Source of the DNA: Gammaproteobacteria bacterium
GTDB lineage: Bacteria; Pseudomonadota; Gammaproteobacteria; Ga0077536
DNA length: 64,000 nt
Assembly (NCBI GenBank): GCA_050247235.1
Contig: JBFWUN010000001.1
Coordinates: forward strand, 103,630 to 167,629
Direction of reading: 5' to 3'
The position numbers were made by a program, and so were the translations under genes. This document shows, one piece after another, positions 36,774-42,275 of this stretch (within the stretch, counting starts at the first letter, position 1; every line of letters begins with the position of its first letter). Below the pieces are notes generated by a model, which did not search any database, had not been told where the DNA came from, and worked only from the letters and a program-made list of their open reading frames with translations.

Positions 36774-39431
36774 ATGACCAACAGCTTCAACGCGCGCGCC
36801 GCCCTGAAAGTCGGCGCCAAGGAATACCAGTACTACAGCCTCAAGGCGCTCGAGCCCCAGTTCAATCTGTCCCGCCTCCCCTACTCCTACAAGATCCTGC
36901 TCGAGAACCTGCTGCGTCACGAGGACGGCGCCAACACGACCAAGGCGGACATCGAGGCGCTGGCCGGCGCGAACCTGCAGAAGCTGCCCGCCAAGGACAT
37001 CAACTTCACGCCGGCGCGCGTGGTGCTGCAGGACTTCACGGGCGTGCCGTGCGTGGTGGACCTCGCGGCGATGCGTGACGCCATCCGCAAGCTCGGCGGG
37101 GATGCGGCCAAGGTCAACCCGCTGTGCCCGGTGGAGCTCGTGATCGATCACTCGGTGATGATCGATCACTACGGTTCGAAGGACGCGCTGGACCTGAACG
37201 CCAAGGTCGAATTCCAGCGCAACGAGGAACGCTACACGTTCCTGCGCTGGGGCCAGGAAGCGCTCAAGAACTTCAAGGCGGTGCCGCCCGACACCGGCAT
37301 CGTGCACCAGGTCAACATCGAATACCTCGCGCGGGTGGTGTTCGACAACGCAGGACTGCTTTACCCCGACAGCTGCTTCGGCACCGACAGCCACACGACG
37401 ATGGTCAATGGCATCGGGGTGCTCGGCTGGGGTGTCGGCGGGATCGAGGCGGAAGCCGCGATGCTCGGCCAGCCGTCGTCGATGCTGATGCCGGAAGTCA
37501 TCGGCGTGCGCGTGACCGGCAGGCTCGCCGAGGGCGCCACCGCGACGGATCTCGTGCTGACCGTCACCGAGATGCTGCGCAAGCGCGGCGTCGTCGAGAA
37601 ATTCGTGGAGTTCTTCGGCCCCGGGCTTGCCAACCTGTCGGCGTCTGACCGCAACACCATCGCGAACATGGGCCCGGAGTACGGCGCGACCTGCGGCATC
37701 TTCCCGATTGACGAGGAGACTTTGAACTACCTGCGCCTGACCGGCCGCAGCGAAGACCAGATCGCAGTGGTGAAAGCGTACGCGCAGGCCCAGGGCATGT
37801 GGTGGACACCGGATTCTCCGGAAGCCGAGTACACCGACGTGCTCGCGCTCGACCTCGGTTCCATCGGGCCGTCGCTCGCCGGCCCGAAGCGACCGCAGGA
37901 CCGCGTGCTGCTGTCGGACGTGAAAGCCAATTTCCGGTCGGCCTTCGAAGCCGAGCAGAAAATGCGCCCTTCGTCGGGCCCGGCCAAGGTCACCGATCGT
38001 GGCCAGACGTTCGACCTGAAGGACGGCGCGGTGGTGATCGCGGCGATCACGTCGTGCACCAATACGTCCAACCCGAGCGTGCTGATCGGCGCGGGCCTGC
38101 TCGCCCGCAAGGCGCGCGCGCTGGGCCTGAAAGCGCAGCCATGGGTCAAGACCTCGCTCGCGCCGGGTTCGAAGGCCGTCACCGAGTACCTTGCGAAGGC
38201 CGGGCTGATCGAAGACCTGGAGCATCTTGGCTTCCATGTCGCGGCGTACGGCTGCACTACCTGCATCGGCAATTCCGGCCCGTTGAACGAGCCCATCGGC
38301 AAGGCCATCCAGGACCACAAGCTCAGCGTGTCTGCCGTGCTGTCCGGCAACCGCAATTTCGAGGGCCGGGTGCACCAGGACGTGCGCATGAACTACCTTG
38401 CGTCGCCGCCGCTCGTCGTCGCGTACGCGATCGCGGGCACCACCGATATCGACCTGACCCAGGATCCGCTCGGCAAAGGTGCCAGCGGCCAGGACGTGTA
38501 CCTGAAGGACATCTGGCCGAGCAACGCCGAGATCCAGGAAGCAGTGGCAAAATCGGTTACCGCCGAACTCTTCAAGAAGAGTTACGCGGACGTCCTGAAA
38601 GGCGATGCGCGCTGGCAGGGCATCAAGGTCACGAAGTCCGAAACCTACCCGTGGGATGCGAAGAGCACCTACATCCAGAATCCGCCGTACTTCGAAGGCA
38701 TGACCATGACGCCGCCGGGCATCCAGCCAATCAAGGGTGCGCGCGTGCTGGCGGTGCTCGGTGACTCGATCACCACCGATCACATCTCACCCGCCGGCGA
38801 CATCAAGCTGGACGGCCCGGCCGGCAAGTACCTTGCCGAGCGCGGCGTGCAGAAAGCCGACTTCAACAGTTTCGGCTCCCGCCGCGGGAACCACGAGATC
38901 ATGATGCGTGGCACGTTTGCGAACACGCGCATCAAGAACGCGATGACGCCGGGGGTCGAAGGCGGCGTGTCCCGCGTCATCAACGGCAGCGGCGGACCGG
39001 TGGAACCGATCTACGACGTCGCGATGAAGTACGCCGAGAAGCAGGTGCCGCTGGTGGTCCTGGCCGGCAAGGAATACGGCACGGGCTCGAGCCGTGACTG
39101 GGCCGCGAAGGGCACCATTCTCCTGGGCGTCAAGGCTGTGATCTCGGAGAGCTTCGAACGCATCCACCGCGCGAACCTCGTTGGCATGGGCGTGCTGCCG
39201 CTGAACTTTGCGGACGGACAGAACGCGCAGTCGCTGGGGCTGGACGGCACCGAGGTGTTCGATTTCGAAGGGCTTGCGGAAGGCGCGAAGGAGCTGACCG
39301 TCAACGCGAAGAAGGCGGACGGCAGGACGGTCACGTTCAAGGCCAGGGTACGCATCAACACGCCGATGGAGTGGGCGTACTACGCGCACGGTGGCGTGCT
39401 GCAGTACATGCTTCGCCAGATGGCGAGCTGA
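36774..39431 (+). CDS. acnA: Aconitate hydratase A
   Basis: [58 protein letters not shown]. Confidence 0.97.
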
Positions 39432-39479
39432 GCTCGGCGCACATGCGAGAGAAAACCCGGCGCGAGCCGGGTTTTTTTT
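39051..39479 (+). repeat. 429-bp direct repeat, copy 1 (acnA 3' end + terminator)
   Basis: No differences from 41847-42275 found on reading by eye. Confidence 0.93.
39452..39479 (+). terminator. Rho-independent terminator, probably bidirectional
   Basis: AAAACCCGGC-GCGA-GCCGGG-T8. Confidence 0.9.
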
Positions 39480-39550
39480 ACTTGTCCCGTTTACGCTTCC
39501 TCGTCACGTACAAGTGGCTAGATGCAAACAATCGAATAACTCAACCCTCA

Positions 39551-40567: not shown

Positions 40568-41595
40568 CACAAGGTATCGGCGAAGCGGAGCTGAGAATTC
40601 TCGACGTAACGCGGTTCCAGCTCGAAGCCGAGCCACCGGCGATTGAGCGCTTCGGCGACAGCCCCAGTGGTATTACTCCCGGCGAAGGGATCGAGCACGA
40701 CGTCGTACTCGTCAGTCAAGAAGCGAGTGTAGAACTCGGGCAACGCGGCTGGGAAGCGGGCCGGATGCGCTTTCTGTTTGGTATCGAGGCAACGCCTGAT
40801 ATAGGCGCTGTTGCTCTCATTGTTGCCACGTTCCAGCAGGTTTGGAGGGATCGCGCCGCCTTGATCCAGTTGAAACTTGCCGGTGATGTTGTGGCCGCTC
40901 GGGCGTTGTTTGGCTTTGTAGCCCTTAACCAACAGTCGCTTCATATCGGGGCTGTACTCAGTAAGCACGTTGCGGTTATTGGCTTTTGGAAATGGGGACT
41001 TGCTAAGCCACCAAACATACTCGACCGAATCCTTAATGCGGACGCGGCGAACATTAACCCACTCGGCCGGAGTCGGAAGTTTGGCCGGGTTGTACCAGAA
41101 GCATTCTTGCGCTAGATGAAAGCCAAGATCGTCACATAGGGCAAGCAACAAACGATAGTGGTAAAGCGAGCGCGTCGGCGAGCCGGCATTGTAGCTACCA
41201 CCGATGTTGAGCACGAAGCTGCCGTCTGCAGTCAGTATTCGCTGGATCTGCTCGGCAAAAGGCAAGAACCATTTTACGTAGCCTGCTTTATCAACATTTC
41301 CGTACTCCTTCTTGAAATGCAGGGCGTAAGGTGGCGAAGTGATGACGAGATTCACGCAGCCTGCCGGTAACTGCTGCATAAGTTTGGCCGAGTCACCCTG
41401 TACCATGGCACCCAGCTCGGTTCGATAACGAGGCGTGGTCGTCAGTAGGTCGCCGACATGGCGGTCGCGTGCGGGCCGGTTCGTGACAGACATGAAACGT
41501 TCGTGGCGATCATGTTGAACGAGGGTAGTCGCCGAAGATGACTTGTTGCGCTGGGAGCGAAGTTGCGCGCGAATATTGTTGCGGTTGACGGCCAT
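40567..41595 (-). CDS. Beta-class N4-cytosine DNA methyltransferase (M.PvuII-like)
   Basis: TSPPY precedes [49 protein letters not shown] match M.PvuII as recalled; TAAGGA RBS before 41595. Confidence 0.9.
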
Positions 41596-41846
41596 GAGTG
41601 TCCTTAGCTGGCTTTGCGCGTGGCTCGGTCCGCGCCAACGAATGTGTTGGACTATTCGACTAGGCGCCGATTCGATTTCAGCGTCGCCTGTGAGAAGCCG
41701 GAAGAATAAACTGTCGCTTAGTACGCCGGAAGGGCCTTAGGGGTTCGCCTGGCCTATCGGCGTGTCGTCGAAACCGCCCGAAGCGGATTTCTTGACATTG
41801 ATCTTCAATATCTGCATGCGTAGACAGAAGCTTCCCGAGCGCTCCT

Positions 41847-42275
41847 CTGGTGGTCCTGGCCGGCAAGGAATACGGCACGGGCTCGAGCCGTGACTGGGCC
41901 GCGAAGGGCACCATTCTCCTGGGCGTCAAGGCTGTGATCTCGGAGAGCTTCGAACGCATCCACCGCGCGAACCTCGTTGGCATGGGCGTGCTGCCGCTGA
42001 ACTTTGCGGACGGACAGAACGCGCAGTCGCTGGGGCTGGACGGCACCGAGGTGTTCGATTTCGAAGGGCTTGCGGAAGGCGCGAAGGAGCTGACCGTCAA
42101 CGCGAAGAAGGCGGACGGCAGGACGGTCACGTTCAAGGCCAGGGTACGCATCAACACGCCGATGGAGTGGGCGTACTACGCGCACGGTGGCGTGCTGCAG
42201 TACATGCTTCGCCAGATGGCGAGCTGAGCTCGGCGCACATGCGAGAGAAAACCCGGCGCGAGCCGGGTTTTTTTT
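41847..42275 (+). repeat. 429-bp direct repeat, copy 2 (5'-truncated acnA fragment + terminator)
   Basis: Duplicate of 39051-39479; encodes only the last ~126 aa of AcnA. Confidence 0.93.
42248..42275 (+). terminator. Duplicated acnA terminator
   Basis: Same hairpin + T8 as 39452-39479. Confidence 0.85.

Follow-up and report, generated by a model that had tools for sequence, protein, structure and literature searches.

A putative restriction-modification gene pair bracketed by a 429-bp direct repeat of the acnA 3' end in an uncultured landfill gammaproteobacterium

Downstream of acnA in an uncultured gammaproteobacterium, two genes lie between two identical copies of the acnA 3' end, and we analyzed this locus as a very probable recent insertion of a restriction-modification (R-M) gene pair. 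The window, by which we mean the whole 64,000-nucleotide (nt) stretch of DNA that was analyzed (positions 103,630 to 167,629 of contig JBFWUN010000001.1, GenBank assembly GCA_050247235.1), belongs to a 4.66-Mb metagenome-derived draft genome of 152 contigs that is 90% complete. Coordinates count from the first base of the window, X4 denotes a sequencing run introduced below, and the "partner" is the gene that adjoins the methyltransferase gene. The features of the locus are as follows.

36774..39431, plus strand: intact acnA, encoding aconitate hydratase A of 885 amino acids (aa) (PF00330, 4e-167; PF00694, 5e-41; NCBIfam AcnA models above cut-off).
39051..39479, plus strand: copy 1 of the direct repeat, comprising the acnA 3' end, stop codon, and terminator (429/429 identity to copy 2).
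39448..39479, no strand assigned: acnA terminator, a hairpin with an A-run before it and T8 after it (from folding).
39480..41846, no strand assigned: inserted DNA of 2367 bp, with a low guanine-cytosine (GC) content of 0.555; missing from the empty-site contig of X4.
39551..40567, minus strand: partner gene, encoding a 338-aa putative type II restriction endonuclease of an unnamed PD-(D/E)XK family (from model fold and gene context).
40567..41595, minus strand: DNA methyltransferase gene, M.PvuII-like (beta-class N4C/N6A), 342 aa as listed (PF01555, 2e-40; PADLOC MTase_II, 1e-113).
41847..42275, plus strand: copy 2 of the direct repeat, a 5'-truncated acnA fragment (coding remnant to 42227) and a second terminator (identity to copy 1).
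42167..43477, plus strand: downstream neighbor, a fusion of 5-formyltetrahydrofolate cyclo-ligase and DUF6306 (PF01812, PF19825; TIGR02727).

Direct comparison of positions 39051-39479 with positions 41847-42275 showed a match at every base (429 of 429; offset, 2796), and a separate repeat search recovered the same pair, as a family capped at 300 nt that starts at 39048. The identity breaks off sharply, with a mismatch at 39050/41846 and unrelated sequences beyond 39479/42275. These are the only two full copies of the 429-nt repeat in the genome, and an exact repeat of this length is far above chance expectation. We also found that 131 nt of the repeat match a site on another contig (G000:C98:4217-4347; L003) at 72% identity, which belongs to a second aconitase-family gene, a paralog and not a third copy. 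The repeat contains the final 381 nt of acnA with the stop codon and a 48-nt tail in which a hairpin is followed by T8. The hairpin has a folding energy of -24.7 kcal/mol (z = -3.93), and none of 200 shuffled sequences was equally stable; a simple terminator and promoter scan reported no promoter-like site and did not list this hairpin, though folding shows it. The truncated acnA fragment and second terminator sit 2.8 kb downstream of intact acnA, and the match of the open reading frame (ORF) at 41850-42227 in copy 2 is limited to the last 53 positions of Aconitase_C. Since the terminator is flanked by an A-run and a T-run and faces the 3' end of the putative nuclease gene, it may be bidirectional and could terminate the nuclease transcript too.

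The DNA between the repeats has a GC content of 0.555 compared to 0.670 for the genome, and just 0.41% of 4374 genome windows of the same size are this low. It holds only the methyltransferase and partner genes, both on the minus strand and convergent with acnA; no controller (C) gene was seen in it, and there are no tRNA genes in 30000-50000, that is, within 10 kb of the insert. An initial annotation of this DNA had described identical 429-bp repeats around approximately 2.37 kb of lower-GC DNA, a content of one methyltransferase and a partner gene with no integrase, transposase, or tRNA, and an intact acnA with a duplicated terminator. Our measurements agree on every count, including the full 885-aa acnA ORF and the hairpin and T8 in both copies. 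The two-gene R-M unit is foreign by composition and was very probably acquired horizontally. An integrase-mediated genomic island was considered and rejected, as the empty-site comparison described below leaves two genes, neither of them a recombinase, and there is no tRNA. A transposon-like R-M unit was rejected as well: neither inverted nor direct repeats that score above shuffles occur at its termini (best score of 13, compared to a shuffle mean of 14.4), and the duplication is 429 bp and not less than ~10 bp. The 2796-bp unit of repeat plus insert carries no replication or transfer function.

An empty version of this site is present in run X4, which comes from another study and is labeled as an organism, not a metagenome. 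One 3639-nt contig of X4 follows the window from 38102 to 39471 and then resumes at 42269-43500, so that acnA, its terminator, and the downstream gene are joined through a single 429-bp copy with no insert. The two parts of this contig have 5 and 9 differences from the window, respectively (14 in 2602 nt; 99.5% identical), and the contig has one T fewer. The terminator T-run is T8 at both 39472-39479 and 42268-42275 in the window and T7 in the empty-site contig. Within the repeat, X4 differs at 39209 and 39227, and both window copies share the same alleles at these positions. Since both copies carry the alleles of the window's own lineage compared to X4, the second copy derived from resident sequence and not from a diverged donor.

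We also asked how the locus looks in related genomes. None of the 40 that were searched (12 members of the genus, 12 from the family's other genera, and 16 from the class) yielded the partner gene, and the insert is not vertically inherited. The deviant GC content, the absence of the partner gene from these 40 relatives, and the empty site in X4 together identify the insertion as the derived state. In two other species of the genus (L017, at G007:C26, and L019, at G003:C4), acnA is followed by an ORF of 414 to 421 aa whose product looks like a multi-pass membrane protein; in G007, a cyclo-ligase homolog lies ~2 kb beyond this ORF, and the region downstream of acnA varies between species.

Runs X1, X2, and X3 are landfill metagenomes that hold the complete window and may be its source, and the junction evidence from them comes from Logan contigs rather than raw reads. 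Each run yielded four pieces: an acnA contig that enters the repeat and ends at 39080, the 429-nt repeat as a separate contig, a 2427-nt contig (39450-41876) made up of the insert flanked on either side by 30 nt of repeat, and a fourth contig that runs from 42246 onward. Because the four junctions are found in contigs of three runs, both joints of the insert, one with the terminator and the other with the middle of acnA, are real and were not invented by the assembler of the bin. The initial annotation had raised an assembly artefact as the finding that would undo its account; the joints held in these independent contigs, which largely answers this concern. The contigs fit the integrated form and a 2796-bp circle with an empty chromosome equally, and on the evidence weighed below we favor the integrated form.

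The depths of these contigs were as follows.

X1: flanks, 119.8 and 114.5; insert, 84.8; repeat, 221.8.
X2: flanks, 62.4 and 68.9; insert, 49.1; repeat, 112.5.
X3: flanks, 18.8 and 20.9; insert, 10.9; repeat, 33.3.

In each run, the depth of the repeat is approximately that of flank plus insert, and the ratio of insert to flank is 0.52 to 0.79; these are per-contig word depths, and contig depth is not copy number. The flank contigs are continuous over 0.7 to 1.4 kb in X1-X3, so any insert-free genomes must be identical to insert-bearing ones over this distance. The word depths per contig suggest that the insert is present in ~55 to 75% of an otherwise uniform population. There was no sign of tandem amplification, and in none of the three runs was the insert deeper than its flanks.

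The insertion is recent and not fixed, with the empty site seen in close kin and some of the source population apparently insert-free. The recent age, which the initial annotation had also proposed, follows from the identity of the repeats at 429 of 429 bases, the empty site in a 99.5%-identical organism, and the apparent polymorphism of the insert in its own population.

When we compared the methyltransferase to proteins of solved structure, it aligned to M.PvuII (PDB 1boo) with an E value of 1.2e-98 over 287 residues (methyltransferase residues 54-340). The TSPPY and FxGxG-type motifs are visible in this alignment, and approximately half of the residues are identical when counted by hand. 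The true start of the gene may be an internal Met codon, as the alignment begins at residue 54. The ATG of the partner gene shares 1 nt with the methyltransferase stop codon, with the methyltransferase gene first and both genes in the same direction, and from the sequence we predict that the partner is translationally coupled to the methyltransferase. Public gene callers give the same limits for the partner (P0001, 100% identical across 338 aa).

The partner itself had no match in Pfam, NCBIfam, or PADLOC, none of 33 members of its family had a significant match to Pfam, and no solved chain in the PDB was matched (best E value, 0.72 for the single sequence and 0.21 for the 33-member profile). 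Its relatives are named "hypothetical protein" in every source. The nearest ESM Atlas clusters all bear this name too, and PDDEXK_14 and RE_AccI appear there at 0.88 only, as leads only. An AlphaFold2 (AF2) model of the partner made from 33 homologs had a predicted local distance difference test (pLDDT) score of 89.2 and a predicted template modeling (pTM) score of 0.84. In an exhaustive structural comparison, partner residues ~82-336 of this model matched almost exclusively PD-(D/E)XK nucleases. The top fold matches were to D212 nuclease (Z score, 10.0, which is modestly above a background in which best Z scores of 7 to 8 are common for unmatched models), Hjc (8.8, 8.5, and 8.2), a RecU-like protein (8.5), and I-Ssp6803I (6.7), and further matches with Z scores of 4 to 5.6 were to DpnI, BsaWI, NhoI, PvuII, BstEII, MspI, and others.

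Across the partner family, the alignment shows E103, D132, N147, and K149 as invariant positions and E107 as a nearly invariant one. The model places these conserved residues in a long helix (83-114) and on or adjoining two strands (133-136 and 142-151), which we take to be where the catalytic residues of PD-(D/E)XK enzymes lie. We regard the structural matches as moderate but not decisive evidence for a PD-(D/E)XK nuclease fold in the partner. Besides the modest margin of the best Z score, several results weigh against reading the partner as a restriction endonuclease with this fold. A Foldseek search of the PDB with the partner model gave nothing at E <= 0.001, with SPARDA nuclease chains and Hjc among the weak top rows; the invariant Asn, N147, stands at the position of the second acidic residue of the PD-(D/E)XK motif; and CAGCTG has an observed/expected ratio of 0.95 in the genome, and hence is not avoided, with 1 occurrence inside the insert. 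Palindrome avoidance is uninformative here, giving no lead on the recognition site, as expected for a recent arrival.

Among the candidates scored, 345 proteins were related to the partner at E <= 0.001, and the closest relatives are 82% and 68% identical to it. The family is represented at 75 genome loci (L023-L097) from Acidobacteriota, Verrucomicrobiota, Chloroflexota, Proteobacteria, Gemmatimonadota, and other phyla. A methyltransferase homolog lies directly upstream on the same strand at 62 of the 75 loci; 7 of the remaining 13 have <350 nt of upstream DNA, and the rest are mostly partial matches. This regular pairing is the strongest argument for reading the acnA-linked genes as a type II R-M unit, in which the partner would be the cognate endonuclease of the methyltransferase. 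More broadly, the partner family is a candidate new restriction endonuclease family that appears to be the regular partner of M.PvuII-like methyltransferases. At none of the 75 related loci is acnA beside the R-M family. The partner gene was absent from 72,556 plasmid records and had no match in a phage collection, and a metagenome scan with the partner protein returned 2 distant loci only. Three predicted viral contigs in IMG/VR (L100, L101, and L102) carry relatives of the partner at 41 to 43% identity; the family is thus occasionally found on phage-like DNA, which says nothing about the origin of the insert at acnA.

Taken together, the locus is very probably the result of a recent horizontal acquisition in which an R-M pair integrated immediately after the acnA terminator and duplicated 429 bp of the resident target. 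Some observations pull the other way. The contigs of X1-X3 break at the repeat, and none spans acnA, repeat, insert, repeat, and downstream gene. The empty site alone gives no direction, as precise excision would yield the X4 sequence too. Furthermore, when we restricted the comparison to the 45 related loci that have 2 kb or more of sequence on either side, direct repeats of at least 40 nt tightly bracketed the methyltransferase-partner pair at 3 of them, compared to 0 of 26 control positions, an enrichment that is not significant (one-sided Fisher p ~0.25, computed by hand).

One of these other loci resembles the arrangement at acnA. In an alphaproteobacterial bin (L064), a 130-nt repeat (4704-4833 and 7017-7146; 126/130 identical) tightly brackets the pair and corresponds to the 3' end of an acyltransferase gene (PF01553). 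The bracketed pair has a GC content of 0.56, compared to 0.71 and 0.67 in its flanks, and 6 insert-encoded codons replace the last 13 codons of the host gene. We regard L064 as the clean second case, a long target duplication that arose independently within this R-M family. Shorter, degenerate repeats occur at L031 (57 nt) and L088 (45 nt). At L027, a 91-nt direct repeat (3060-3150 and 7311-7400; 96% identical) comes from the 3' end of a luciferase-like monooxygenase gene and brackets 4.1 kb with a short-chain dehydrogenase gene, a truncated 3-hydroxyisobutyrate-dehydrogenase-like gene, and the methyltransferase-partner pair. We discounted L027 as a clean case because host-like dehydrogenase genes lie inside its repeats, and we consider it a more complex rearrangement.

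Inserts of this kind have been described before. In the scheme of Furuta, Abe, and Kobayashi (2010, Nucleic Acids Research 38:2428; PMC2853133), an "insertion with long target duplication" is an insert of <20 kb that contains R and M genes, together with a duplication of >30 bp that aligns with an empty site, and has no other mobile element. Their cases, in Helicobacter, Haemophilus, Burkholderia, and other genera, have repeats of 46 to ~420 bp, the lengths in their Table 3 including 417/423, 388/397, and 384/412, and the class, for which they cite Nobusato et al. 2000 (their reference 37), has been deduced from comparisons of genomes since 2000. At acnA, the M gene is identified by PF01555 and the M.PvuII match, and the R gene is putative, from its fold and pairing. 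The insert is 2367 bp long, the 429-bp duplication aligns once with a conspecific empty site (X4 joins 39471 to 42269), and there are no other mobile-element genes and no tRNA attachment site. The acnA-linked insert thus belongs to the known class of R-M gene insertions with long target duplication, a class that the initial annotation had also named. Furuta et al. leave the mechanism of insertion unexplained, with double-strand breakage possibly involved. We found no later mechanistic resolution in the literature from 2016 on, searched for the class phrase in titles and abstracts.

For the route of insertion, we prefer, tentatively and at somewhat short of an even chance, homology-free end joining of a linear fragment. 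Each end of a foreign linear fragment would have been joined, independently of homology, at one of two sites separated by 429 bp. These sites would have lain on replicated or sister DNA, or else at a staggered break with subsequent fill-in, and the resident 429 bp would have been copied in the process. The joints are homology-free and blunt, and one lies exactly after the terminator T-run. Because this route copies resident sequence, it explains why both copies carry the alleles of the lineage. Two results count against it: the alignment has no microhomology at either junction, and neither Ku nor an ATP-dependent ligase was found in the genome, whose 90% completeness makes this no proof of absence. 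End joining would therefore have to proceed without an enzyme that we can name.

The main alternative, which we consider possible but on the unlikely side, and which the initial annotation had proposed alongside a restriction-triggered insertion, is a Campbell-type integration, in which a circle with the R-M pair and a 429-bp acnA 3' segment (for example, a circularized fragment or a circle excised from a clonemate) entered chromosomal acnA by a single RecA crossover. The structure is exactly the product of one such crossover, the repeats, at 100% identity, have a length sufficient for RecA, and the contig graph of X1-X3 equally fits a circle of repeat plus insert. This alternative would also accord with the R-M life cycle of release and re-invasion that was proposed by Furuta et al. 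(PMC2853133), neither step of which, by their account, had yet been observed. However, the circle must already have held acnA of the resident lineage, since both copies share alleles at 39209 and 39227 that differ from X4, and an earlier illegitimate insertion beside acnA would still be needed. The R-M family also shows no preference for acnA (0 of 75 loci), and the 2796-bp unit has no replication or transfer function.

In a further alternative, the pair is not integrated at all: the chromosome is empty, the 2796-bp repeat plus insert is a separate circle, and the assembler walked the loop in the graph once. The breaks of the Logan contigs at the repeat in all three runs, the repeat depth equal to flank plus insert, which both forms predict, and the origin of the window in a 152-contig metagenome-derived draft are all compatible with a circle. 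We nevertheless consider it very unlikely, as the unit has no replication gene, its depth of 0.52 to 0.79 per chromosome in 3 of 3 samples is unlike that of a small multicopy plasmid, the partner gene is in none of the 72,556 plasmid records, and the 429 bp identical to the chromosome would itself require derivation from an integrated form. L064, in a different genome, shows the integrated arrangement with diverged repeats. The least credible reading is of an old insert, or of one that arrived by chance between existing repeats (one of three published classes in PMC2853133, "chance insertion between repeated sequences"), with empty sites made by repeated precise excision and gene conversion keeping the repeats identical; excision between the 429-bp repeats would leave exactly the X4 sequence, but no partner gene turned up among the 40 related genomes, acnA has different downstream surroundings in the other species inspected, X4 has a single 429-bp copy, and the strongly deviant GC content has not been ameliorated.

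Returning to recent insertion with target duplication, we note its consequences for the neighboring genes. Because 429 bp were duplicated, acnA, its terminator, and the upstream context of the cyclo-ligase gene are all preserved. The cyclo-ligase/DUF6306 ORF as listed begins within the repeat (42167); its domain match begins at residue 86, and the true start is probably further downstream. On the other side of acnA, a DUF1326 gene and a PpoB2 copper-chaperone-like gene lie at 35105-36702 on the minus strand as overlapping ORF calls. It is plausible from the literature that the direct repeats could later permit RecA-dependent excision or amplification and that the R-M pair could resist loss through post-segregational killing. 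A stronger proposal, which we consider doubtful at best, is that the methyltransferase/PD-(D/E)XK pair is a self-mobilizing element and that the landfill population is in the middle of an invasion or of a cycle of excision and re-invasion. If this were true, the "virus-like life cycle" of R-M systems would be directly observable in public samples.

What is new here is an unusually clean and recent case of an already described class. The locus is about as simple as this class gets, with two genes, perfect repeats, an exact empty site, and apparently both states in one population, and is therefore well suited to testing for the coexistence of circles, tandem arrays, and empty sites. A second point of interest is the widespread and unnamed family of putative nucleases that regularly partners M.PvuII-like methyltransferases in soil and sediment bacteria.

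Among named systems, the PvuII R-M system shares the methyltransferase, which aligns to M.PvuII over 287 residues (E value, 1.2e-98). In contrast, the 338-aa partner has no sequence match to R.PvuII, which is a weak fold match (Z score, 4.9), and the insert has the order M then R, in the same direction with a 1-nt overlap, and no C gene seen. We therefore rejected an R.PvuII-type endonuclease as the identity of the partner, on the basis of no sequence or profile match at E < 0.2, the length of 338 aa, and the Z score of 4.9. The group of PD-(D/E)XK nucleases formed by the archaeal Holliday-junction resolvase Hjc, D212, and RecU provides the best fold matches, to partner residues ~86-331, and presumably also shares the placement of a Glu on the first helix, an Asp before a strand, and x-K on the next strand. 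The partner differs from this group in several respects: it has no sequence similarity to it, carries ~80 additional, helical residues at its N terminus as well as long insertions, has an invariant Asn in place of the second acidic residue, and is found in the context of a methyltransferase rather than a repair function.

R-M units between long direct repeats can amplify, as Sadykov et al. 2003 reportedly showed (cited as reference 84 in PMC2853133). The acnA insert is likewise an R-M pair between long direct repeats, but its depth is 0.52 to 0.79 of that of the flanks, with no sign of amplification. Compared to the class of Furuta et al., the insert has a repeat length within the published range and a GC content that deviates from that of the genome. 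It differs in that its repeats are perfectly identical (429/429), that it is apparently polymorphic within one natural population, that the host is an uncultured high-GC landfill bacterium, that the putative nuclease belongs to an unnamed family, and that the duplication ends at the last T of the terminator, so that both neighboring genes keep their signals.

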